From positions 1-37,134 of IMG/VR virus record IMGVR_UViG_3300008007_000037: 37,134 bases of DNA. The stretch is one strand, 5' to 3'. Made by a program: the position numbers and the translations under genes. The DNA comes from a virus. Lineage: Duplodnaviria; Caudoviricetes. This document shows positions 11,622 to 30,989 of the stretch, piece by piece. Position 1 is the stretch's first letter, and every line of letters starts with the position of its first letter. A model generated the notes under the pieces. The model had not been told where the DNA came from. It saw nothing but the letters and a program-made list of their open reading frames with translations, and searched no databases.

Positions 11622-12123
11622 AAGTCATGTATGTATTTTCAAAAGTCACAAGCGCATCACCAAAAGTTATAAATGAGCCTTCCGAGGGTTCATTATAGAA
11701 ACCATAATATTGATCGCTTGATGTGTTAATAGATAGGATGTAGCCATTTTGACCACTCGCTTGAGCGTTGATAGTAGGTTGTGCGGTTATAAATGCAGGA
11801 AATTCTTCACTACCAATAAGTATAACATCACCAGCACCAGTAGTAATTTTAAGTACTAGCTCTTTTTGCTGAATGGCATTTAGTAATGTGTGATTTGCTG
11901 CACCAACTTTTGGCGTAAAACCATTCATTGAAATAGTTGCAGCATCTTCACTGATAGAAATATCACTGCTAAACTGAGCAATATCAAGCTCTACCCACGG
12001 ACCATTTGTAAGAATATAACCTACATAATTGAAATCAGGACCAAGCACGGGCATGCTGGTAATGTTTTGTATAAAAACATACTCAATTCTACTTATGCTG
12101 GCCACTAACCCGTCTCTGATCAT
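11611..12123 (-). CDS. Putative structural protein, first gene of late operon 3
   Basis: ATG 12123 is 4 nt after the promoter motif; VILIGSEEFPA resembles LRQLGSENLPV in the tail-tube candidate. Confidence 0.55.
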   Translation of the reverse strand: MIRDGLVASISRIEYVFIQNITSMPVLGPDFNYVGYILTNGPWVELDIAQFSSDISISEDAATISMNGFTPKVGAANHTLLNAIQQKELVLKITTGAGDVILIGSEEFPAFITAQPTINAQASGQNGYILSINTSSDQYYGFYNEPSEGSFITFGDALVTFENTYMTYGE

Positions 12124-12127
12124 GCAA

Positions 12128-12163
12128 CGAAGTTGCAACGGCTATTTTATTAGCGAAAGGACA
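12128..12163 (-). promoter_or_regulatory. Putative late promoter 3 (TGTCC-N27-TTCG)
   Basis: TGTCCTTTCGC...CAACTTCG then TTGC-ATG. Confidence 0.72.
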
Positions 12164-12171
12164 TCGAAGGA

Positions 12172-12963
12172 CTAAATAGGCAAATGCACATTACTCAAAT
12201 GAGCTTTTGAAATATGCGTATAAATCATGGTAGTTTCTATGCGTGAATGACCGAGCATATTGGCTAATGTAGGTAAATCAACGCCACTTTCTATAAGCGT
12301 AGTAGCAAAGCTGTGTCTTAACTGATGAAAATGCACGTTTGATCCGATATATCGCTTTACAATTTTATTGCAACTCATAGGTGAATATTGCTCAGAAAAT
12401 TGACCTTTAAAAAGATAAATCGTTGGTCTGTATTGTTTGTAGTATTCACGCAAAACAAGCAACACGTTTTCGCTCAAAGGCAGATTGCGATCTTTAAACC
12501 CTTTGCTGCACTTAATGGTTATTTCCATTCGATCACTATCTATATCAGTCAGCTTCAAATTACAAACTTCACTTACTCTCAATCCCACAGAATTACCAAG
12601 CATCATAATAGCTTTATGCTTTAAATTATCACATCGATCAATACCATCAAGAATCACTTTTTTAGCAATAGCTTTTGGTAGTTTCTTATGCTTTCTAGGT
12701 CTGTAAAAAATGACTTTATTATACTTTTTACCCAATACAGATTGGTAAAAAAACTTCAATGCATTCACCACTTGGTTTTGGTGCGACTGCGATTTATACT
12801 GATAGTTTTCAATGTATTTCTGAAACTCGTCAGCGCTTACTCTGTTTGCAGGTTTATCTAATTGATGCAAATATTGATTTATAAAATGCAGATATATCTT
12901 TTGCGTGTTTTTGGCGTAACCAAGCAGCCGCATTTTCTGCTCTGAACTTTGGTAAAAATCCAT
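12172..12963 (-). CDS. Tyrosine recombinase (XerD/integron-integrase-like, about 263 aa) adjacent to the cassette array
   Basis: GLRVSEV (R), SKGFKDR (K), HQLRHSFAT (HxxR), LGHSRIETTMIYTH (H, Y); SAM-like N-terminal domain; start taken at ATG 12963. Confidence 0.93.
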   Translation of the reverse strand: MDFYQSSEQKMRLLGYAKNTQKIYLHFINQYLHQLDKPANRVSADEFQKYIENYQYKSQSHQNQVVNALKFFYQSVLGKKYNKVIFYRPRKHKKLPKAIAKKVILDGIDRCDNLKHKAIMMLGNSVGLRVSEVCNLKLTDIDSDRMEITIKCSKGFKDRNLPLSENVLLVLREYYKQYRPTIYLFKGQFSEQYSPMSCNKIVKRYIGSNVHFHQLRHSFATTLIESGVDLPTLANMLGHSRIETTMIYTHISKAHLSNVHLPI

Positions 12964-13012
12964 AGTGTAGGTATTGTATTTATTGGGGTGTTGTTTATTT
13001 TGACGGTTGTAG
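12964..13012 (+). other. attI-like primary recombination site (G|TT at 13006-13008)
   Basis: First cassette starts with GTTGTAGG here with no preceding hairpin arm, directly upstream of the recombinase start. Confidence 0.6.
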
Positions 13013-13024
13013 GTAATAAGCCTA

Positions 13025-13201
13025 CTAACATTCTGCATAAGTCCAAGTTTCCATATTTTCACCTTGTGCTTTTCCTTTCCAAGAAAACCTGTCGAATCCT
13101 TTGTGTCTTACACTTATCCATTTATGCATCCAATCACCGTTATCACGTTGATAATTCTGTCCTATCAATTTTCTGTTTTTATCAAAAATATTCTGTCTCA
13201 T
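13025..13201 (-). CDS. Cassette 1 hypothetical protein (58 aa, not in ORF track)
   Basis: MRQNIFDKNRKLIGQNYQRDNGDWMHKWISVRHKGFDRFSWKGKAQGENMETWTYAEC*; fills the cassette body. Confidence 0.7.
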   Translation of the reverse strand: MRQNIFDKNRKLIGQNYQRDNGDWMHKWISVRHKGFDRFSWKGKAQGENMETWTYAEC

Positions 13202-13241
13202 AAGTCAAGTTTTTGAGTTTAAAATCCGTAGGCTTACATAC

Positions 13242-13367
13242 CTACAACAATAAATATGAAGTAATAAGGCAAGTCCGTTGACTCGGACGATTTTTGTATA
13301 AGCAGTTATCAACTGCGGTATCTCATTTATTTTATTTGCCTTACTACTCATATTATTAACGTTGTGG
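13242..13367 (+). repeat. attC-like site 1
   Basis: AAC 13246; arms AATATGAAGTAATAAGGCAA / TTGCCTTACTACTCATATT; GTT 13361. Confidence 0.85.
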
Positions 13368-13376
13368 TGCATTTGC

Positions 13377-13598
13377 CTACGCACCTCTTAAAATAGCCTT
13401 TCTGTTTTCAATATCTACTTCAAATTCAATTCCACAGTCACATTTACAAGGTGAGTGCCTGTTTACATTTGCCATTACATCATCAGGGCAATTTTCAAGT
13501 GTATATACTTCTAAAAAGCAATCACCACTTTTGCTTTGAAATTCCCTTTCTTCCCCACAATTAGGGCAGTTTACCATTACAGAATCATACATTCCCAT
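13377..13598 (-). CDS. Cassette 2 protein, Zn-ribbon-like
   Basis: MGMYD...CPNCG...FQSKSGDC...CDCG. Confidence 0.8.
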   Translation of the reverse strand: MGMYDSVMVNCPNCGEEREFQSKSGDCFLEVYTLENCPDDVMANVNRHSPCKCDCGIEFEVDIENRKAILRGA

Positions 13599-13612
13599 CG
13601 CTCAAAAACGCA

Positions 13613-13743
13613 CCACAACAATGTATAACAGCAATAGCGGTTGCGGTGCTTAATTTTAGCACTATTGCTTTCAATTAATATATGTTTTAACTCAATCATT
13701 CGTGCTTCTTAATCCGCTACTGCGGTTATACTCTCCGTTGTGC
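13613..13743 (+). repeat. attC-like site 2
   Basis: AAC 13617; arms GTATAACAGCAATAGCGG / CCGCTACTGCGGTTATAC; GTT 13737. Confidence 0.85.
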
Positions 13744-13758
13744 TTCATTAAAACGAAA

Positions 13759-14206
13759 GCACAACATGCAATATAAAACATGCTTATTGCTGTGCTTCGT
13801 TTCAACGTCTGTGCTATTAGGAAGGGAAATAATAATGCCTTCCCACGCTCAACTACTTCTTAATTTCAGGCCAGTTCCATTGTCCAGCTTCTTCACCTTT
13901 CAATGCACTTGTAACCCAAAAACTACCCTCACCATCATTTTGCACATTTAAGTTGATAGCTGCTTCTTCAGTATCTCCCCAAACTGCCACTACAATAGCG
14001 GGTAGTTTTTCTTGAACATTGCAGTTTGACGCATCTTCCATACGCTTCTGCTCTTCTTTTGTGGTGTTATAAATAACCACTCTTCCAATTGTTGGTAACA
14101 TAATAAATATGGGTTTTACAAAGCCCGCCCAAGGCATTATTATTTTTGTTCTTCGTAGCAAGGTCAGTGCTATATTCCGCACGTTTCATATTGCTGTACG
14201 TTGGCA
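13759..14206 (+). repeat. attC-like site 3, expanded (gene inside loop)
   Basis: AAC 13763; arms GCAATATAAAACATGC (13768) / GCACGTTTCATATTGC (14179); GTT 14200. Confidence 0.8.
13853..14101 (-). CDS. Hypothetical protein (82 aa) nested in attC3
   Basis: MLPTIGRVVIY...LPAIVVAVW...WNWPEIKK; start reassigned to ATG 14101. Confidence 0.8.
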   Translation of the reverse strand: MLPTIGRVVIYNTTKEEQKRMEDASNCNVQEKLPAIVVAVWGDTEEAAINLNVQNDGEGSFWVTSALKGEEAGQWNWPEIKK

Positions 14207-14210
14207 GCAA

Positions 14211-14483
14211 TTAGAACAACTTACCAAACAACTTTCTGATTTCGGGCTTATGAGTAACGTCATTACCATAATCTGATACGTTATTGACGAATTCCGCTAT
14301 ATTTTCCTTATCAATAGTTCCAGTCGATTCGACTATTGCGAAATGTCCTTGAATGGCCTGATCTTCCCATTCCCAAGCTATATAAGCCCGAAATTGTCCA
14401 TTTTCAGGAAGCAATACAATACCCCCAATTGCTTTACCTTTTACTCTTGAGTAATCTTTTGATTTTGTTTTGACTGAATTCAT
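14211..14483 (-). CDS. Cassette 4 hypothetical protein
   Basis: ORF bounded by IR GTTGGCAGCAATTA / TAACTGCTGCCAAC. Confidence 0.8.
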   Translation of the reverse strand: MNSVKTKSKDYSRVKGKAIGGIVLLPENGQFRAYIAWEWEDQAIQGHFAIVESTGTIDKENIAEFVNNVSDYGNDVTHKPEIRKLFGKLF

Positions 14484-14502
14484 TTTCGATTGAATTAACT
14501 GC

Positions 14503-14632
14503 TGCCAACAATTGCTATAAAAACATAGGGCAGTCAGTGGTTATACAAAGTGTAGGGGTCTTTATTGTCGTCCGTGCTTATCGGACAGTTTCGGCTATCT
14601 ATGCCCTACGTTTCATAGCATAGCCGTTATAG
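14503..14632 (+). repeat. attC-like site 4
   Basis: AAC 14507; arms GCTATAAAAACATAGGGC / GCCCTACGTTTCATAGC; GTT 14626. Confidence 0.85.
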
Positions 14633-14638
14633 GTAAGG

Positions 14639-14836
14639 CTAAAAATGCTTCGGACACCATTCCCAATTTTCCTCACGAAATTGTTTAACAGGAATAGTAA
14701 CAACCGTGCATCCAACAGCGATATATTCACCATACTCTCGTTTCTCTTTTAATGTTGGTTTGTCATTTGGTTGCCCAGCCAATTTATATTTGTTTCCTTC
14801 ACACGGACATTTAAAAATTCTTACAGGTTGTTCCAT
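14639..14836 (-). CDS. Cassette 5 small Cys-containing protein
   Basis: ORF bounded by IR GTTATAGGTAAGGCT / AGCCCTACCTATAAC. Confidence 0.78.
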   Translation of the reverse strand: MEQPVRIFKCPCEGNKYKLAGQPNDKPTLKEKREYGEYIAVGCTVVTIPVKQFREENWEWCPKHF

Positions 14837-14863
14837 TTTATTTAAGTTTGTGAGAAGCCCTAC

Positions 14864-14996
14864 CTATAACAGCACATAGGCAATATGGCGGGGTTCTCGG
14901 TTAATATTAAGTTTAGTTTTTCAAATCAAGTTTAGTGCTTATAGATAGTTTTCGTTTCCAAAATCCGCCACATCGCCTATCTGCAAAACGTTATAG
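14864..14996 (+). repeat. attC-like site 5
   Basis: AAC 14868; arms GCACATAGGCAATATGGCGG / CCGCCACATCGCCTATCTGC; GTT 14990. Confidence 0.85.
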
Positions 14997-15001
14997 GGCA
15001 T

Positions 15002-15325
15002 TTACTGCAACCTTAAAGACCTAAACCAATTCAATAATCTATTTTTATTACCAAGAGAGTATCCCCATTTTCCAGTAATCAAAAAGGTTAGTGGCAGTCC
15101 TACAATCATTAATAGCATTGTGAGTAACGCAAATGGCAGAGTTAACCTTATCCAAAAACTTACAGGCTCTTTTTCTTCGTAGTAAAAATCCATCCTCAAT
15201 TCAATCAACCTATCTACCATTTCCTCGCTACTAAGTTTTGAAAGTTCAGGAAAAACCTTTTTGAATCTCGGCATATAATTAGCATATCCGTTTGACCAAG
15301 TACGTTTTAGTTTTCTATACATCAT
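15002..15325 (-). CDS. Cassette 6 membrane protein
   Basis: Hydrophobic LTLPFALLTMLLMIVGLPLTFLITG; bounded by IR GTTATAGGGCATTT / AAACGCCCTATAAC. Confidence 0.8.
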   Translation of the reverse strand: MMYRKLKRTWSNGYANYMPRFKKVFPELSKLSSEEMVDRLIELRMDFYYEEKEPVSFWIRLTLPFALLTMLLMIVGLPLTFLITGKWGYSLGNKNRLLNWFRSLRLQ

Positions 15326-15337
15326 AATAAAAACGCC

Positions 15338-15467
15338 CTATAACAAAGTGTATAGCAAATAGCCGTTATTGGGCTGTAATTAAACTATTTGCGTGTTTAT
15401 AAATTAGTTTCTTATCTCAATGGTCTGTGCATTTTATCGGCTACTTGCCATACACAAAACGCTATAA
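15338..15467 (+). repeat. attC-like site 6 (right end reads GCT, fused to attC7 arm)
   Basis: AAC 15342; arms GTGTATAGCAAATAGCCG / CGGCTACTTGCCATACAC. Confidence 0.8.
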
Positions 15468-15924
15468 GTAATGCGGGTGTCGTAGCTCGTATGAAGGTTT
15501 GTGCTATGCTTCTTTTTTTGCCAACGCACTGTAATCAATATCATCAATAAAATCGTCAACTTCACACATCATTAATTCAGCGTATTTCTGATTAATGGCT
15601 TTTGATGTTTCAGATTCGCTTTTTGATGATAATTCATAAATCAGTTCTTTCAACGCTTTTATTTGTGATGATTGCCATTCAACCATACATAGAGGACAGC
15701 TTTGAGATTCCCCATTTACATCTGTCCACATATACTCATATATGGTCTTGTTTCCGCATTCACAACTTGTGTGGTTGTCTTTGTCCTTTAGGTGTTTTGA
15801 AGTTATAGTTTCCATTTTATATTTAGTTTATGCCCACGCTCAAAAAAGAAGCGGGAGCGGTTAATACTCGTATCAAGGTCAGTTCTGTAATGCCCGCACT
15901 ACCCATAGCTGTGTTACGTTATGC
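15461..15924 (+). repeat. attC-like site 7, expanded (gene inside loop)
   Basis: Arms GCTATAAGTAATGCGGG (15461) / CCCGCACTACCCATAGC (15893); GTT 15918. Confidence 0.75.
15504..15815 (-). CDS. Zn-finger-like hypothetical protein nested in attC7
   Basis: CECG...CPLC followed by coiled coil. Confidence 0.8.
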   Translation of the reverse strand: METITSKHLKDKDNHTSCECGNKTIYEYMWTDVNGESQSCPLCMVEWQSSQIKALKELIYELSSKSESETSKAINQKYAELMMCEVDDFIDDIDYSALAKKEA

Positions 15925-16116
15925 GCAATTAAGTTCCGATAACTTTACCGTTAACCAATATGGCACATCATACTCTTCATCATTTCTTACATATTCTCCT
16001 TCTTCATCCCAGTCCCAAAATGGATTAGCTATATTGCAAGTCCCATCTTCAAATATTGTTTCTATATGTGTTTGTTTCCCTGCATATTCAACTGTTTGAC
16101 CTTCTTCGTATTTCAT
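15919..16116 (-). CDS. Cassette 8 small acidic protein (65 aa)
   Basis: MKYEEGQTVEY...; start reassigned to 16116; stop overlaps the GTTA core. Confidence 0.78.
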   Translation of the reverse strand: MKYEEGQTVEYAGKQTHIETIFEDGTCNIANPFWDWDEEGEYVRNDEEYDVPYWLTVKLSELNCA

Positions 16117-16134
16117 AATATTTTTAATAAAAGC

Positions 16135-16227
16135 GCATAACCCACGGTATAAACAAACCGCCAATTAGCCTTATTTGTACTATTGAACTGTCTTATAGGC
16201 GGTCAGTTCATACCGCTCTTGTTACCG
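16135..16227 (+). repeat. attC-like site 8
   Basis: AAC 16139; arms CGGTATAAACAAACCGCC / GGCGGTCAGTTCATACCG; GTT 16221. Confidence 0.82.
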
Positions 16228-16295
16228 TGCATTGCTATAAAATTAATTAGTAGCAATCTTTGAACGTCACAGCCTTAAAGAAGGAAGCAACGACA

Positions 16296-16610
16296 CGGTA
16301 ACATTTTGTATAAATAATAATTAAAAACCGAACGGGCTACCATCTTTGAAAATATCGCCAAAAATGGAGCTAAACGGATTTTCTTCCGTACACTTATATA
16401 CTATTAATTTACCAAAATCAGGGTATTTCTTTTTCAAATAATCCTCGAATTTCACCTGAGCTTCTACACTGCTATATTTGTTTTTAGCTCGCATAGTTCC
16501 GCTTTTCAAAACCGCACCATTTTTAGCTTGTGCGGTATATTTAATTAAGTAGTTCTTTTGTTGCATTTTATCATGTTTTTAATTACTATTCATACAATTT
16601 ACCGTTATCT
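16296..16610 (+). repeat. attC-like site 9, expanded (gene inside loop)
   Basis: AAC 16300; arms TTGTATAAATAATAATTAAAAAC / GTTTTTAATTACTATTCATACAA; GTT 16604. Confidence 0.8.
16321..16566 (-). CDS. Hypothetical protein nested in attC9
   Basis: 81 aa ORF; its stop codon lies in the left arm of the hairpin. Confidence 0.78.
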   Translation of the reverse strand: MQQKNYLIKYTAQAKNGAVLKSGTMRAKNKYSSVEAQVKFEDYLKKKYPDFGKLIVYKCTEENPFSSIFGDIFKDGSPFGF

Positions 16611-16805
16611 TCAAGTTTTCCCTCCACCGCGCTCTAAGGGCAACCGTACTATCCGATACTTTTCGTTTTCAAATTCTTTTTGCTTTTTTTTAGAAAAGAC
16701 GTGTTCCAGTTGATTTGCTGTCAACTCGGTAGCTTCCAAAATAGGAGATCGCGAACCAAATATTCGCGCTTCCCCTGTCTGTTTGTTTAAGAACCAGTAT
16801 GGCAT
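16611..16805 (-). CDS. Cassette 10 small protein, possibly DNA-binding
   Basis: 64 aa basic, helix-turn-helix-like middle. Confidence 0.65.
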   Translation of the reverse strand: MPYWFLNKQTGEARIFGSRSPILEATELTANQLEHVFSKKKQKEFENEKYRIVRLPLERGGGKT

Positions 16806-16811
16806 AACTGT

Positions 16812-17057
16812 TTAATTTACGGTATATTGATCAATTTGCTGCCAGTCAAATTCAGGATAAACCTTTTTGTTTTCCCTCGCTGTTACCGTTACGCTGACAT
16901 TGTTTTGCTTTGCTATTTGAATGTACTGGTCTATAAAATTTGATGACTTTTCAACGTCATTACTTGTAATGGAGCAGGAGCTTCCTATTCCTTCCAATGG
17001 CTTTGAGTAGTTGAACTCAATTCTAAATTTGTTTTTTGGGCTTCTTAATTTTGACAT
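16812..17057 (-). CDS. Cassette 10 hypothetical protein
   Basis: 81 aa ORF in a tight operon. Confidence 0.7.
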   Translation of the reverse strand: MSKLRSPKNKFRIEFNYSKPLEGIGSSCSITSNDVEKSSNFIDQYIQIAKQNNVSVTVTARENKKVYPEFDWQQIDQYTVN

Positions 17058-17065
17058 GGTATTGA

Positions 17066-17383
17066 TTATTTAGTGTTAGACATCATTCTTACTTTATCAG
17101 CTCCGAAGTAAGCAACTGCTTTAGCGTGGTTGCTTTCAGAGTAAGGCTTTGTGTAGGTTGTTCCGATTTCGCAATCAAAAGTTCCCAATCTACTTTGAGC
17201 TTCTTGAAGGTTACCCATCAAATCCATTCTTTTCAGTCCTTCGCTGATTGTGATTTTTCTAAAGTTGTTCATCAAATCAACCATGAAGTCTTTTAAGCTC
17301 ACGTTGTAAAACCCTTTGATTTTGCTGTTGTAGTAGTTTACTACTTCTTCTCTGTTGGCTTTTAAAAATTCTTGAGTTGTCAT
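17066..17383 (-). CDS. Cassette 10 hypothetical protein
   Basis: Start at ATG 17383 (MTTQEFL) downstream of a TATATTTG promoter box. Confidence 0.75.
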   Translation of the reverse strand: MTTQEFLKANREEVVNYYNSKIKGFYNVSLKDFMVDLMNNFRKITISEGLKRMDLMGNLQEAQSRLGTFDCEIGTTYTKPYSESNHAKAVAYFGADKVRMMSNTK

Positions 17384-17413
17384 TTCGTTGTCTTTTTGTT
17401 TGTTTCTATACCC

Positions 17414-17446
17414 CAAATATACAACCTATTTTGGAACTACCAAAGA
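17414..17446 (-). promoter_or_regulatory. Host-type (Bacteroidota sigma-A) promoter within cassette 10
   Basis: -7 box TATATTTG at 17421-17414 with TTTG about 20 nt upstream. Confidence 0.7.
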
Positions 17447-17507
17447 AAAAAGCAAAATATTTCAAATAATTTGTGTTTTCGTAAAGCCAACGCGCGGAAA
17501 AACCAGA

Positions 17508-17571
17508 AGATAACAGCACCTAAATCGCCATGCCCTGTGGGACACAGGCGTTTAGCTGCATCACGTTCTCT
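17508..17571 (+). repeat. attC-like site 10 (short, about 60 bp)
   Basis: AAC 17512; arms GCACCTAAATCGCC / GGCGTTTAGCTGC; GTT 17565. Confidence 0.8.
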
Positions 17572-17602
17572 GCAAGTGCTACAATCCTGCTAAAACAGAA
17601 CA

Positions 17603-17839
17603 TTATCCCTCCGAATCTTTTTCTTTTCTTTCCTCCCCCGCACTCAAAAACGAAATAGCTTTTTCAGCTACTTGCTTTTGATTTTCAATTACAGGTAGCA
17701 ACTTAGCTTTTGATGCTTCTGTCATTCGCTGATCCCCGTTCAGCATCATGTTAAGGAAGCGGATGTTGATACCCGCTTCCTTGCAAATTCCTGACTTGTT
17801 GATACCAGGCTGATCGAAAAATTCTTGGACCTCTTTCAT
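17603..17839 (-). CDS. HTH DNA-binding protein
   Basis: INKSGICKEAGINIRFLNMMLNG XRE-like HTH. Confidence 0.72.
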   Translation of the reverse strand: MKEVQEFFDQPGINKSGICKEAGINIRFLNMMLNGDQRMTEASKAKLLPVIENQKQVAEKAISFLSAGEERKEKDSEG

Positions 17840-17879
17840 CTCCCAGTTGTATTGTGTTCGGGAAGTTGTGTTGCGTTAC

Positions 17880-18068
17880 CTAAATAGCGTGTTTATCTAT
17901 TTCGGCTGCATAGTATTGTTTCACTTTTATTCCGAGCTTCTGCAATGCTAATTGTCCGCAACTCATACCGTCAAACCGCGATAACACGGTAATTCCTTCG
18001 GCTTCTGAAAAGCCGTTTTTGCCACCGCTTGAATTGATAATTATAATGTCGTATTCGTGCAAATTCAT
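17880..18068 (-). pseudogene. Chimeric remnant: PAPS-reductase-like N-terminus fused to a C5 DNA methyltransferase motif I fragment
   Basis: YDIIIINSSGGK then ITVLSRFDGMSCGQLAL...YYAAEIDKHAI*. Confidence 0.7.
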
Positions 18069-18150
18069 AATAGTGAAAACTATTTATTATTTGATTCCTA
18101 TTTTTTACTGTTTACCCCATAAAGTAAGCCAAAATGTGGCTTTTTACGAA

Positions 18151-18457
18151 TGTCGGATGAACATTGTGCTAAAATACACTTAAACAATTGATTTACATAT
18201 ACTTTAACATTAAAAACCAGCCGACAAAATCCGACATGTACAAACTTAAACAATTGTTTAACAGTGTTTTGCGCTTGTCGCGTTCCGACAAATTTTGTCG
18301 GAAATTTCCGACAAAATTTGTCGGATTTGTCGGACGTTAATTTACTGATTTTCAATTTAATTGATGTTAATTTGTCGGATTTTGTCGGCTGCATTTCGTT
18401 GTTTTTTGTAGGTTTTACGGGCTTTTCAGGCGTTTTTATGCGTTTTTCAATCCGACA
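18151..18457. repeat. Cluster of 11 CCGACA/TGTCGG hexamers; candidate replication origin
   Basis: Copies at 18151, 18221, 18231, 18285, 18296, 18308, 18319, 18328, 18373, 18383, 18452 in AT-rich DNA next to the replication gene. Confidence 0.75.
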
Positions 18458-18506
18458 TTCGGTATTTGTAACATTTTAATATTTGAACTTTGGATTGCTA
18501 AATGCA

Positions 18507-19898
18507 TTATTCATTCTTTGCTCCAAACACTTTTGGATAGTCTTGAATGGCTTTTTTCACTAAGCGCTCTGCACGCTTCTCTTTGGCGTTATCTGTGATT
18601 TTTACACGCTCATAGAGCTTTTCTCCGATCATGGCATAGCTATATCCAGCCTTTACCATCGATGCCAGGCGCAGCACTTCTGCTGGTGCTACTACGGTGG
18701 TATTTACACGCTCATATACTGTGGCGGCACTCTCGTAGAAATAGTCTGCAAGCTGCAGCGCTCTATCCATGGTTTGCTCACTTATTTCGCCATCTTCAAA
18801 CGCATGGTGGTTATAGGCTAAATCACTCACGTGGAGTATTCCTGCAAATCTTCTGGCATATTCGCTTATTTTACCCAATATACCTGAGTGTATTTCCATA
18901 TCACGCACATCGCGCATGTGGTTTATTTTACTAATGCGCATTCTGCGCCACGTTTCCAGTGCTTTTGATGCTCGCCTATCCATAGTAAGCATGCGCGGAT
19001 CATCATATTCATTTTCTACATAAAGTGCCTTGTAAAGTTGCTCTATACGTTTGGTGTGTATTTGCTCTAACTCTTCTTCAAAAACATAGCTGCTGTCTGG
19101 TTGGGCTATTTTCACCTTTTCTGGCACCGCAAATAGCAGTCTGAAAATGAAACCAGTGGTATCTCTGTCATTTTTAAAGAGCTTGTACATAATAGTGGGC
19201 TGAATACCACCAACTACATTGATGAATGGTCTAGGAATAGAGAATTTCTCCTTTCCGGATCTGATACCGGAATACGGTCTGCAGTTCCAAGCTGACAAAT
19301 AAAACTGCTCATCTGTGCCCTCTTTTCGGCTGAGCTGGTTCATACCGTTGATCCACTCCAATATTTCGTCTGCTATCTTAGTTACGCCTTTTGGATTGTC
19401 TGGCATCACACTTCTTACCAAGGTGCTAATGTGCACATCGCGCACCACGGCTGTCATCAATCGCTCATATTTCAAGTCTTCACGCGATAAATTATCATCA
19501 TCTTGCTTTTCTTTCCACTGGCGATCATACTTTTCTTGAATGCTATACAGTGGCTTCAAAATCATATCCATTGCCAATGATTTACCAGAGCTTGAAATAC
19601 CCTCTAAACAACCCCAAATTGGTAAATAGGTTAAGTTTTGGCTCTGCTTCACCGCGTATGATGTGCCTATGGCGCTGCTATAAGCTGTAAGCATGCTCAA
19701 TCCTACATAAGCGCGTGGTAAATCATAATGCTCAATCAAGGCTTGCATATATGGCTGTATAGCTTTGTGAAACACATCTATCGGAAATACATTTTCGAGC
19801 TGGCGCTTTTCAAGCTCAGCGGCTAAATCTTGTGTGCTGATGGTTGCGGCTGCGTTGCTGCCTTTAAAATGGTCTTGTATGTTTATTACAGTATTCAC
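18507..19898 (-). CDS. DUF3987/YfjI-like P-loop ATPase (replication helicase-like)
   Basis: FPIDVF N-terminus, Walker A GISSSGKS, Walker B IADEI, VVGGIQP, GFIFRLLF. Confidence 0.8.
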   Translation of the reverse strand: MNTVINIQDHFKGSNAAATISTQDLAAELEKRQLENVFPIDVFHKAIQPYMQALIEHYDLPRAYVGLSMLTAYSSAIGTSYAVKQSQNLTYLPIWGCLEGISSSGKSLAMDMILKPLYSIQEKYDRQWKEKQDDDNLSREDLKYERLMTAVVRDVHISTLVRSVMPDNPKGVTKIADEILEWINGMNQLSRKEGTDEQFYLSAWNCRPYSGIRSGKEKFSIPRPFINVVGGIQPTIMYKLFKNDRDTTGFIFRLLFAVPEKVKIAQPDSSYVFEEELEQIHTKRIEQLYKALYVENEYDDPRMLTMDRRASKALETWRRMRISKINHMRDVRDMEIHSGILGKISEYARRFAGILHVSDLAYNHHAFEDGEISEQTMDRALQLADYFYESAATVYERVNTTVVAPAEVLRLASMVKAGYSYAMIGEKLYERVKITDNAKEKRAERLVKKAIQDYPKVFGAKNE

Positions 19899-20698
19899 AG
19901 TTTTAGTGCTTCAAGTTGGGTTAATAATGGTTGGTGATCTTTGGTTGGATTTAGCAGTTTAAGCATGGCGCTCACCAAAATGCGCATGCCTGTTTTGCTG
20001 CGGCTGTCAAGCATAGCCACTTCGCTGGCTCTGTTTAGCATGTGCTGCACTTTGTTTCTGTTTGCAATCAATCTCACGCGGCTGTTGATCAATCGATTTA
20101 GCTCTGTAAACTCGGCCAGCTCCATTTCTAGTTCTGCTTTCTCATAGAAACTCACAGCTTTGTCTATCGATTCAAAAATGGCGTTGCTATCATTGAATAT
20201 ATCGCTGATAAAATCAAGGTACTTTTCTCTGGCCAGCGCTTCTGTTGGACTGATAGCCGCATTCGTCAGCATTTTCATGAGCGCACTTCTGCAGTTTTCA
20301 ATTGCTTTTTTGGCAGCTGTGTAAAAATCTTCTTGCAGTAGAACAAATGCGTGAAAACTAGCATTGCTCACCAAAAACAAATCGTGTTTGCAAATAGCAG
20401 CCAGGTCATAAGCAAGCATGGCGCCAGCATTAGCTATGGCTGCGTTGTTCATGGCAATGGTTAGCGATAGCACATTTACCGGCTCGGCTGCCCAAAGCTT
20501 AATAATGCAGTTGTAAACCACACTAAGCGCCACACTGCCACCAGATATTGATGGCAGTTTGTGCTTAAAGTTATTTGCAGATAACACATCGGCAACAGAC
20601 GCAATACATTCAGGATGTTTTAGCATGAGGCAGATCATGTTTAGCTCATAATCTTGTCGCAGTTCGGGCGCTATTTGGTGAAAATCAAGCTGAGACAC
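19895..20698 (-). CDS. Protein with DnaB-helicase N-terminal-like domain
   Basis: ELNMICLMLKHPECIASVADVLSANNF...VYNCIIKL...PVNVLSL pattern; no ATPase domain. Confidence 0.55.
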   Translation of the reverse strand: MSQLDFHQIAPELRQDYELNMICLMLKHPECIASVADVLSANNFKHKLPSISGGSVALSVVYNCIIKLWAAEPVNVLSLTIAMNNAAIANAGAMLAYDLAAICKHDLFLVSNASFHAFVLLQEDFYTAAKKAIENCRSALMKMLTNAAISPTEALAREKYLDFISDIFNDSNAIFESIDKAVSFYEKAELEMELAEFTELNRLINSRVRLIANRNKVQHMLNRASEVAMLDSRSKTGMRILVSAMLKLLNPTKDHQPLLTQLEALKL

Positions 20699-20703
20699 GA
20701 GCG

Positions 20704-20817
20704 TTAGATTCTGCTTGATGGCTGCGGCTTCACAACCCTTCTGGTTTGTGTTTTTCTGTTGTCAAGAATGGCTTGCACCATATCTGTAGAAAATAGTATT
20801 GGCCGTGATTTAGCCAT
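20704..20817 (-). pseudogene. 37-aa remnant of an ASCH-like phage protein (not in ORF track)
   Basis: [33 protein letters not shown] is the characteristic N-terminus, then an immediate stop. Confidence 0.7.
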
Positions 20818-20849
20818 AGTATAAATTAATTAAGGTGTTACTAAAAAAT

Positions 20850-21233
20850 TTACTTGGGCATGTAGGTATTGCAGCTTTTGCAAAAGCTCTCAAATGCGTG
20901 GTTTTCTGTCTGGCAATACAGGCATTGCTTAGATTCAATTTCATCAAATATTGATTTCCAATTGGGCAAATTCACATTCATCATGCCCTTAAATTCATTG
21001 TCATCAAGTATTTGATTTTTAAAATGCTCTACCGGTAGATTTAGTACATACAAGTACTTTTGAACCAAAATGCAGTAGTCATTAAAAATCATTGAAAAAC
21101 CCTCTATCGTTTTCGCTTTTGACGAATCTGCTTTACACTTTGTGATGCTCACTTTCAATGCTGTTTTCGCATCACTTTCGTTTATTTTGGCCGTAAGTAT
21201 TGGCATAGGATCGTACTTTAAATTACGCAGCAT
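20850..21233 (-). CDS. Hypothetical protein with C-terminal zinc ribbon
   Basis: CLYCQTEN...FCKSCN. Confidence 0.7.
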   Translation of the reverse strand: MLRNLKYDPMPILTAKINESDAKTALKVSITKCKADSSKAKTIEGFSMIFNDYCILVQKYLYVLNLPVEHFKNQILDDNEFKGMMNVNLPNWKSIFDEIESKQCLYCQTENHAFESFCKSCNTYMPK

Positions 21234-21567
21234 TGGTTCTCCATTTTTGCATGGTTTTATACTCAGAAGATCTCTCTGCTTTCCTTATCGCAAACTGAAC
21301 GTCTACAGGCATACGCATTAAACTTTGGTCGCCTCTTTCGTTTTGCTCCATAACAAACGGGCCATTATACATCCACTCATACATCAAGTCTTTTGCATCT
21401 TGATCGCTAATGCGAAATGCGTAGCGGCCATTTTTTTGCCAACCTTCTGTTTCAGGTTCTGGTGATGATACCACCATGTTTTTTTTGTTAAGCCAAATGC
21501 ATTGAAAGCCAATGTTTAGCCATATCTGTTGGCCATAAGGCACTAATGTGATCCAGTTACTTTTCAT
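21223..21567 (-). CDS. Hypothetical early protein
   Basis: ORF in tightly packed early operon. Confidence 0.7.
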   Translation of the reverse strand: MKSNWITLVPYGQQIWLNIGFQCIWLNKKNMVVSSPEPETEGWQKNGRYAFRISDQDAKDLMYEWMYNGPFVMEQNERGDQSLMRMPVDVQFAIRKAERSSEYKTMQKWRTNAA

Positions 21568-29842: not shown

Positions 29843-29892
29843 CGTAAAAATGTTAAATTTCAGTGTTTTTTGAATATTTTTCGTCTAAATAC

Positions 29893-29924
29893 TTGGACGG
29901 TATATGGTTTTTGTCTTATATTTG
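29893..29924 (+). promoter_or_regulatory. Host-type promoter of the plus-strand moron
   Basis: TTG at 29893 and TATATTTG at 29917-29924. Confidence 0.68.
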
Positions 29925-29973
29925 TTCTATAAGAAAAACACAAAGAAATACTAACAACAAAAACTTAGCAGTT

Positions 29974-30633
29974 ATGAAAACAATCAAATTAAACCAAATC
30001 GAAACCAAAGAAGACGAAGCGGTAATCTACGCAGCGATGGCCTACCGTTCGGAAAACACCGCTGATCCTATAACATCAGAACTGAGCTATCACTTAACAT
30101 TTGAAGCCGCTGAAGCTGCAGCAAAAGAGATTAATCTTGAAGTAGGATTTTCAGCCATTACCGAGCATTGCATTTTTGACTTAGAAGAAGTTACAGAGCT
30201 TTTTGAAAGTAAAGAAGAAATCGAACTAAGCGACTTAACAGAGTTGTATCACGAAAAAGATAATACGATAGAAGTAGCAACAAATGAAGGAACATCGGTA
30301 GTTGGCGATGTTATTATTAGCTGGAATTACGAAAAATATGTAGGATATGCTCGCAATTTTTCGCAAATAGGATATGGCGGTCAGTGGCCATTCAACGACT
30401 TTAAATATGAAAGCGACTTGATCACTGGTAACGAAGAGTCAAATTTTAGAACTAATTACTCTGTTTTGTTAACTGCTGACGAGCTTAGCGGCTTAACGGA
30501 TCAAGAAATTCTTGACGCTTGTAAATAAGCCTTGTATTCTGGCGATTGGAAGTGGAATCACTTCAAAAACAGACCAACGGAAGAAAAAATAATTGATGGT
30601 TTAAGCTTGACTATAACAGAAATTGAACTTTAA
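29974..30633 (+). CDS. Acidic hypothetical protein, probably interrupted by in-frame TAA at 30526
   Basis: MKTIKLNQ start; frame stays open for 34 codons after the stop (ALYSGDWKWNHFK...EIEL*). Confidence 0.65.
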
Positions 30634-30672
30634 AATCTCGCTAGTTTCTCGCTAAGTTCTAGCGAGGATGCG

Positions 30673-30701
30673 CCCCGATGGCCTTACGGCATCGGGGTTT
30701 T
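30673..30701 (+). terminator. Terminator-like hairpin between moron genes
   Basis: CCCCGATG-GCCTTACGG-CATCGGGG followed by a T run. Confidence 0.7.
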
Positions 30702-30722
30702 GCGCTGAAAAAAATATATGAT

Positions 30723-30989
30723 ATGGATCAATACTCAGAAATAGCACTGAAAAAAATAGGCGAAGGCGTGAAAATAATGATAAAAGCACGCAAAATACCT
30801 ATCGAACACCTGGCAGCACAAAGTGGAATTTCAAAACAAGTAATCTATAACATAATTAATGGGAAAGATTATCAAATCAGTTCGCTCATTAAAATATTCA
30901 GAATATTAAAAGTGCACATTGATTTTTCATTAATGGATTCGAAAAACAATATTATTGCTCAAAGCGGTGACAATATTTCGATGAATTAA
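30723..30989 (+). CDS. XRE-family HTH protein
   Basis: IEHLAAQSGISKQVIYNIINGKDYQISSLIKI; start reassigned to MDQYSE. Confidence 0.8.
   Translation: MDQYSEIALKKIGEGVKIMIKARKIPIEHLAAQSGISKQVIYNIINGKDYQISSLIKIFRILKVHIDFSLMDSKNNIIAQSGDNISMN

Follow-up and report, generated by a model that had tools for sequence, protein, structure and literature searches.

How does a phage come to carry a row of small genes that are bounded by the triplet GTT and lie beside a recombinase lacking the insertion typical of integron integrases? This question is raised by positions 12,172 to 17,571 of the virus record IMGVR_UViG_3300008007_000037 (Duplodnaviria; Caudoviricetes), whose 37,134 nucleotides (nt) are referred to here as the window. 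The region contains an array of ten units that are bounded by predicted hairpins and GTT borders and lie next to the gene of a short tyrosine recombinase. The array likely functions like a bacterial integron, although both the enzyme and the sites lack integron-defining features. We consider it probable that the units of this integron-like array are exchanged at their GTT borders by the family of short recombinases encoded beside it.

Anatomy of the array

The recombinase gene (12172..12963, minus strand) encodes 263 amino acids (aa) with a SAM_4 N-terminal domain and a catalytic domain, and its reading frame remains open up to a GTG at 13062. It is adjoined by an unfolded attI-like site (12964..13008, plus strand), whose GTT at 13006 lies 43 nt from the recombinase start. 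An earlier note, made from the sequence alone, had placed cores at eleven positions, and GTT is found at ten of them, with GCT at 15461. It had further proposed that each cassette body begins with GTT plus a cassette-specific box and ends with the reverse complement of that box plus AAC. This holds for nine of the ten units, in which the heptanucleotides following GTT and preceding a downstream AAC are complementary (59 of 63 nt); unit 7, which has no such GTT…AAC box, is omitted from the count and departs from the rule. Permuted starts gave a mean of 26.8 matching nt, and none of 100,000 permutations scored as high as the observed value. When each AAC box was paired with the GTT start of the next unit as a control, just 24 of 56 nt matched.

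All twelve cassette open reading frames (ORFs) lie on the minus strand. They are antisense to the polarity of the sites, point towards the recombinase and run in the same direction as its gene. Short hairpins were predicted in cassette 1 (13006..13360; ORF 13025-13201, hairpin C1 13246-13363), cassette 2 (13361..13736; ORF 13377-13598, C2 13617-13739), cassette 4 (14200..14625; ORF 14211-14483, C4 14507-14628), cassette 5 (14626..14989; ORF 14639-14836, C5 14868-14992, a member of a widespread site family), cassette 6 (14990..15460; ORF 15002-15325, phrog_36118, C6 15342-15463), cassette 8 (15918..16220; ORF 15919-16116, C8 16139-16223) and cassette 10 (16604..17564; ORFs 17066-17383, 16812-17057 and 16611-16805, C10 17512-17567), all of these cassettes being assigned to the plus strand. 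The remaining three units are built differently, as their genes lie inside a hairpin of 307-460 nt and outside the GTT…AAC body. Cassette 3 (13737..14199) consists of a 29-bp body with a recurrent CATTAAAACGA core and the long hairpin C3 (13763-14202), whose loop holds the ORF 13853-14101. Cassette 9 (16221..16603) has a geneless body of 82 bp and the hairpin C9 (16300-16606) with the loop ORF 16321-16566, and cassette 7 (15461..15917) lacks a body and is made up of the hairpin C7 (15461-15920) with the loop ORF 15504-15815. The 29-bp body of the cassette 3 type recurs in seven other distinct units, five of which have a frame of 55-98 aa in the hairpin loop.

Folding predictions were consistent with this architecture. 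The seven short sites folded on the minus strand with z scores from -2.4 to -5.4, and only 0-2 of 200 shuffled sequences folded as well, whereas the attI-like stretch was unfolded (z +0.2 and +0.4). The three long sites scored -2.3, -0.9 and -2.8 against only 12 shuffles. In nine of the ten window sites, the minus strand was predicted to be more stable than the plus strand. Five of the ten passed the strict signature of the family, and arm bulges are present in C1, C4 and C10. The imperfect palindrome that the earlier note had described after every body is borne out by the seven short sites, while in units 3, 7 and 9 it is replaced by a long hairpin with the gene inside. As judged from sequence, each unit spans one GTT to the next and contains the predicted hairpin found at the gene's 5′ end.

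The GCT at 15461..15463 is likely a scar at which C6 was fused to the left arm of C7 when unit 7 lost its body, with the removal of about 33 bp. This reading is based on the locus L301 (G002:C1:34376-34860), which has an intact form of C7 with a different loop gene. A point-mutated GTT was considered as an alternative and rejected, because the same 69 nt follow a 29-bp body in L301, where they make up the left arm of a long site that is intact. The long-hairpin scaffold of C7 is conserved there at 93% in both arms, while the loop gene differs except for a common N- and C-terminus, and a scaffold with a swapped loop gene hints at how cassettes are formed.

None of the cassette genes of the window had a Pfam match above the cut-off. 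A scan of 12000-18500 against Rfam returned a single chance-level match, and scans for promoters and terminators remained at chance level. Within cassette 10, a TAnnTTTG element (17414..17421, minus strand), which we take to be a promoter-like motif, faces the array and the recombinase; it is weak, because eight such matches occur on the minus strand of the window. Beyond the last GTT, positions 17565-17660 show cassette-like idioms and may represent a decayed eleventh unit.

Exchange of units at the GTT borders in relatives

Do such units move? Cultured phages provide natural variants. Seven of the ten isolates of Polaribacter phage Freya were compared (all but Freya 3, 4 and 7). They have a common backbone of 42,063 bp with 0-4 mismatches, and the differences of all six other isolates from Freya_10 are confined to whole units; on the gene strand, all seven junctions fall at AAC. 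Four variants have lost units adjoining attI, one has lost an internal unit of 902 bp, and Freya_6 carries, at attI, a cassette of 472 bp that was found in no other locus then compared. The site polarity proposed from the window sequence is therefore fixed by the position of these junctions. In the accessible part of the Freya isolation paper (PMC8776804), the terms integron and cassette do not occur, and the recombinase gene is taken as a sign of temperate life. Among five isolates of phage Danklef, three (Danklef 2-4) precisely lack a 781-bp methylase cassette, and the junction again falls within AAC/GTT. Freya_10 (L043) and Danklef_5 (L215) also have a block of 1,169 nt in common (99.6%), which occupies different array positions and has AAC at both edges.

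Cassettes of the window itself recur in other surroundings. Cassettes 5 and 6 were each found whole in another locus (L275 and L386, respectively; 93% in both cases), with other neighbours and with borders at GTT. Three more loci (L387-L389) contain the cassette 6 gene with an alignment limited to the gene, and no relatives of the gene that comes first in cassette 10 turned up outside the same phage. A total of 83 metagenome loci contain the C5 site, and in the 60 in which the right arm could be located, conservation extends up to GTT(A) and falls afterwards. The inverse core of the site matched the start of its own unit perfectly over 10 nt in 29 of 37 loci and the start of the next unit in one of 37; no chance rate was computed for this upstream search, and the resulting lengths cluster at 341-541 nt.

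Taken from aligned genomes, these comparisons indicate that units are lost, gained and placed beside new neighbours exactly at the common AAC/GTT triplet, while the site adjacent to the recombinase stays fixed. On these grounds, site-specific mobility of the cassettes is almost certain. The cassette logic and polarity put forward in the earlier note were thus confirmed, and the check it suggested, for variation of related genomes at the GTT cores, came out in its favour for the breakpoints in Freya, Danklef, L275, L386 and the contig L264 discussed below.

The short recombinase and its putative hairpin sites

Which enzyme moves the cassettes? The catalytic residues R129, K154, H213, R216, H239 and Y248 of the window recombinase are invariant in an alignment of 48 rows, in agreement with the intact R-K-HxxR-H-Y enzyme noted earlier. 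The protein matches the tyrosine recombinase domains PF00589 and PF13495, and 875 of 3,602 candidates are homologues with an E value of at most 1e-40. It does not rank as an IntI-type integrase, with 143.6 bits for TIGR02249, below the cut-off of 265. The lack of the IntI-specific insertion I2, which had been suspected from its length, is evident from the corresponding segment, which measures 47 aa in the window, 47-48 aa in 12 phage rows, 51-55 aa in 25 bacterial rows and 93-95 aa in 14 IntI-type rows, four of which were confirmed above the TIGR02249 cut-off. The enzyme also remains below the cut-offs of TIGR02224, TIGR02225 and NF040815, the last of which gave its best NCBIfam score. As controls, we used distant viral contigs (L001-L042) that emerged from a single-protein scan of viral contigs and encode true integron integrases, with canonical attC sites upstream; six of six tested proteins exceed the TIGR02249 cut-off.

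In quick trees with a midpoint root and without archaeal XerA, the short enzymes, IntI and the XerC/D proteins of the same genomes fell into three separate groups. A sister relation between short enzymes and IntI is not claimed on the basis of such trees. The phage enzymes formed a group of their own (Shimodaira-Hasegawa approximate likelihood ratio test, SH-aLRT, 97). Xer-type recombinases (archaeal XerA, 4a8e and 5hxy; XerC/XerD) have the same length and catalytic core as the window enzyme, and 4a8e is its best sequence match among solved structures. Unlike XerC/D of the same genomes, from which they group apart, the short enzymes are tied to cassette arrays.

This linkage was quantified in 80 close viral loci. 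At least two units lie upstream of the recombinase in 48 of the 52 loci with at least 2 kb of upstream sequence, but downstream in only 10 of 75. In 39 of 55 loci, the first unit begins 35-70 nt from the recombinase. TATA at -9 to -6 is present in all 39 distinct attI rows of the family and in Freya. The fixed position in these 39 loci and the constant flank in Freya, next to which the first cassette changes, are what is expected of an attI site. The orientation of the genes resembles that in the window, with 189 of 203 cassettes carrying an antisense gene, eight a sense gene and six none. We regard it as very probable that cassette mobility is catalysed by this family of short enzymes.

The sites linked to the short enzymes differ from canonical attC sites. 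With equal penalties for both classes, the left arm of sites at IntI loci proved to contain extra bases in 26 of 31 cases (predominantly +9/+10 and +16), compared with only four of 104 phage sites linked to short enzymes; an extra base in the right arm occurs in 17 of the latter. Instead, these short-type sites have a G·T wobble on the bottom strand at +15 (101/104) and at +10 (52/104), and their right spacer is longer by 2-4 nt in 102 of 104 cases. With an independent finder, 134 of 147 phage sites and 39 of 50 sites from bacteria had the G·T pair at +15. The bottom strand was predicted to fold better in 89 of 91 sites of relatives.

Related arrays also reside in bacterial chromosomes. In a survey of 80 bacterial loci with sister enzymes, sites with the signature were located downstream and on the same strand as the gene in 17 of 44 cases and upstream in divergent orientation in 7 of 62, and 20 of 22 cassettes have sense genes. 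In a second bacterial set, signature sites were detected at 10 of 14 loci. A detector without polarity gave no signal at the bacterial loci (5/63 versus 3/44), whereas the polarised one did. About one third of the sampled Bacteroidota genomes (138 of 401) encode a member of the family, while none of five tested had an IntI above the cut-off. The system is not confined to Bacteroidota, as a Desulfitobacterium chromosome (L140; Bacillota) has a short recombinase with three signature sites on its downstream side.

These bacterial arrays bear on the view that the cassettes are moved by conventional duplex recombination, either Xer-like or homologous between repeats, and that the palindromes are RNA structures of an early transcript. 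The best sequence match to an archaeal Xer protein, the scarcity of extrahelical bases and the coincidence of the better-folding strand with the mRNA strand would suit such a process. However, the junctions have only the AAC/GTT triplet in common while the site sequences differ, and the short enzymes group apart from chromosomal XerC/D of the same genomes. Moreover, the bacterial cassettes mostly have sense genes with an unchanged wobble polarity, so that the asymmetry tracks the site and not the transcript. Duplex recombination therefore appears very unlikely, and chemistry on single-stranded hairpins is the somewhat favoured alternative.

How close is the system to an integron? Both have in common an attI beside a tyrosine recombinase, an inverse core matching the unit's own start, a GTT crossover, bottom-strand hairpins and a SAM_4 N-domain, and the best fold match of the predicted model (predicted local distance difference test, pLDDT, 88) is the Vibrio cholerae integron integrase 2a3v. 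As with the G|TT crossover of integrons, the Freya and Danklef junctions all fall within AAC/GTT, and L264 splits between G and TT. In contrast to integrons, the window-type enzyme lacks I2 and stays below the IntI cut-off, the sites mostly have G·T wobbles in place of extrahelical bases, some phage genes lie inside hairpin loops, and the predominantly antisense orientation implies that no attI promoter drives the cassette genes. None of the twelve window ORFs is a sense gene of the kind driven from attI in integrons. The array is thus integron-like in its working but not a true integron, because it differs from integrons in three features that were looked for (the insertion of IntI, extrahelical bases and sense-oriented genes). 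The earlier claim of an integron-like system holds in that the array is real; it overlooked the antisense and loop genes, the missing extrahelical bases and the share of Bacteroidota chromosomes in the system.

Formally, the absence of a nearby IntI would class the array with the clusters of attC sites lacking integron integrases (CALINs), yet the window does contain an attI-like site and a recombinase, albeit not of the IntI type, linked to the cluster. According to the available sections of Qi et al. 2023 (PMC9892861), phage genomes including that of Polaribacter phage P12002L contain attC-like sites, interpreted as captured true integrons or CALINs, and IntI1 is active on five phage sites. 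These sections also describe a Vibrio prophage with an attC site on either side, and they name no phage-encoded short recombinase or attI. As the two P12002L oligonucleotides tested there miss the six signature sites of this phage, the IntI1 result is no test of the short-enzyme family. Twenty-one non-IntI recombinases near attC sites were judged not to be IntI in the part of Cury 2016 at hand (PMC4889954), and Bacteroidota are listed among the phyla with integrons in the consulted portion of a review (PMC8618304). Group IIC-attC introns target the bottom strand of attC sites, as far as the available text of PMC3001079 describes them. Likewise, the array of a related prophage (G225:C1:250000-258000, L367) was invaded by three identical group II introns of 1,860 nt on the bottom strand at the inverse-core GTT; such targeting was seen in this relative only and not in the window. 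A published description of this short-enzyme cassette system was not found in a search that had most subscription papers and bioRxiv supplements outside its reach.

A proposed mechanism and the probable activity of phage copies

In the mechanism we propose, the short recombinase would cut folded bottom-strand hairpins and the unfolded attI-like site. Cassettes would be excised as circles and inserted at attI with a G|TT crossover, the hairpin substrate being single-stranded. Since enzyme and sites both lack the matching canonical features, recognition without I2 might rely on the asymmetric spacer, with its 2-4 extra nt in one arm, and also on the conserved G·T wobbles where true attC sites have extrahelical bases. 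The antisense genes suggest that phage transcription enters the array at its far end and proceeds to the recombinase, and an incoming cassette would consequently be transcribed last and not first. Some cassettes may carry their own promoter. Phages and Bacteroidota chromosomes would draw on a common cassette pool and site family, and the sister enzymes of the chromosomes could act in trans.

Several observations weigh against this interpretation. The window recombinase forms a long branch and deviates at 12 near-invariant columns, the second highest number among 48 rows, and the Freya enzyme is just 36% identical to it. The window attI lacks TATA at -9 to -6. Danklef varies although its enzyme is truncated and contains an in-frame stop; the cassette loss may have preceded the break of the enzyme or may have been made in trans. 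P12002L has its six signature sites but no short enzyme. No joint was present in the contigs of four runs with the window phage, although contigs drop rare forms, and G001 is 100% identical to the window over 13430-21489. A polarity-aware detector found 212 sites upstream in the expected polarity at viral loci, none in the opposite polarity, one downstream and none at IntI loci, a result that is partly circular because the detector was tuned on those viral loci. Finally, I2 reportedly both docks the extrahelical bases and blocks the second strand exchange, as stated in the accessible part of Escudero 2020 (PMC7790495), and the short enzyme would have to manage without it.

Could the array be a passenger, moved by a host sister recombinase while the gene and attI of the window idle or decay? 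The wide occurrence of family members in Bacteroidota genomes, with the same sites flanking their genes, would provide such an enzyme, and the variation of Danklef, the orphan sites of P12002L, the deviating enzyme and attI of the window and the missing joints all agree with it. On the other hand, the phage enzymes form their own group in the quick tree and keep all catalytic residues, phage attI sites lie at a fixed distance from the gene, and four of the six Freya variants lost units adjoining attI. A passenger array therefore seems unlikely to us. That phage copies of the system are in general active is fairly likely, whereas the chances that the particular copy in the window is still active are evenly balanced. 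The proposal that this phage shuffles its genes with its own machine stands as far as relatives vary at GTT; it is not borne out as to the role of its own enzyme, given the off-consensus attI, the departures in the protein and the lack of a joint.

The contig L264 raises the question of whether the recombinase serves another purpose. It is 100% identical to the window over 12365-15461 (3,097 nt) and diverges exactly at G|TT in the G|CT junction of the window, where it continues with bacterial-type cassettes, first a complete one of 721 bp whose gene is on the sense strand and whose site has the same signature, and then a second one. A second record bridges the two ends of the window via 11 nt, which makes the genome a circle of 37,145 bp, and L264 with its 38,213 nt exceeds this circle by 1,068 nt (957 visible bases and about 111 more). 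Such a contig could stem from integration of the phage as a giant cassette, from additional cassettes in a variant or from a chimera made during assembly. Atlas matches of the L264 cassette protein were all under 0.9. In the first case, the recombinase would mainly be a lysogeny integrase by which the whole circular genome enters a host array via C6, with cassette shuffling as a by-product. No other integrase was found among the 57 window proteins, which would be in keeping with this role. Nevertheless, the candidate junction is visible at one end only, a chimeric assembly at the common hairpin arm would stop at the same base, and contigs in four runs cross 15461 in the form of the window. Furthermore, the prophage G225, which encodes a separate 401-aa recombinase at its end, and phage Ingeline encode, in addition to the short enzyme, another integrase of greater length. 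We thus regard a main function in lysogeny as quite improbable and retain exchange of cassettes at GTT as the preferred role. Other, deeper contigs in the same runs carry C5 and C10 (window 14834-14992 and 17499-17559) and diverge at or near GTT.

The window phage comes from sequencing runs labelled aquifer or groundwater, and matches to terminase, prohead protease, tape-measure protein and endolysin are found among its proteins. Its host presumably belongs to the Bacteroidota, since relatives of the recombinase and of the sites point there. Just outside the array lies a short fragment of a DNA methyltransferase gene (17880-18068, minus strand; phrog_116), which is complete beside similar sites in related phages. 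Positions 18131-18477, just past a primase/helicase-like gene, contain nested inverted repeats, direct repeats of the CCGACA type and a perfect 42-nt palindrome (18284-18325), and are possibly a replication origin. Two genes at 29863-30989 (plus strand) oppose the main direction; the second encodes a Cro/C1-type HTH protein, and both form a possible repressor module compatible with temperate life.

In its boldest form, the proposal would be that a family of I2-less enzymes in Bacteroidota and their phages recombines G·T-marked single-stranded hairpins, as a parallel to or forerunner of integron chemistry, and that this phage inserts its 37-kb genome as a giant cassette via C6. We hold this combination to be unlikely. 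The I2 helix is regarded as the step that enabled integrases to handle folded single strands, at least in the available text of PMC7790495. If an enzyme without I2 moves hairpin-bounded cassettes, the origin of this ability would become directly testable, and the cultured phages Freya and Danklef offer ready natural variants. About one third of the sampled Bacteroidota genomes would then possess a relative of an enzyme overlooked by IntI-based screens, and phages would own a gene-capture platform with cassettes in common with their hosts.

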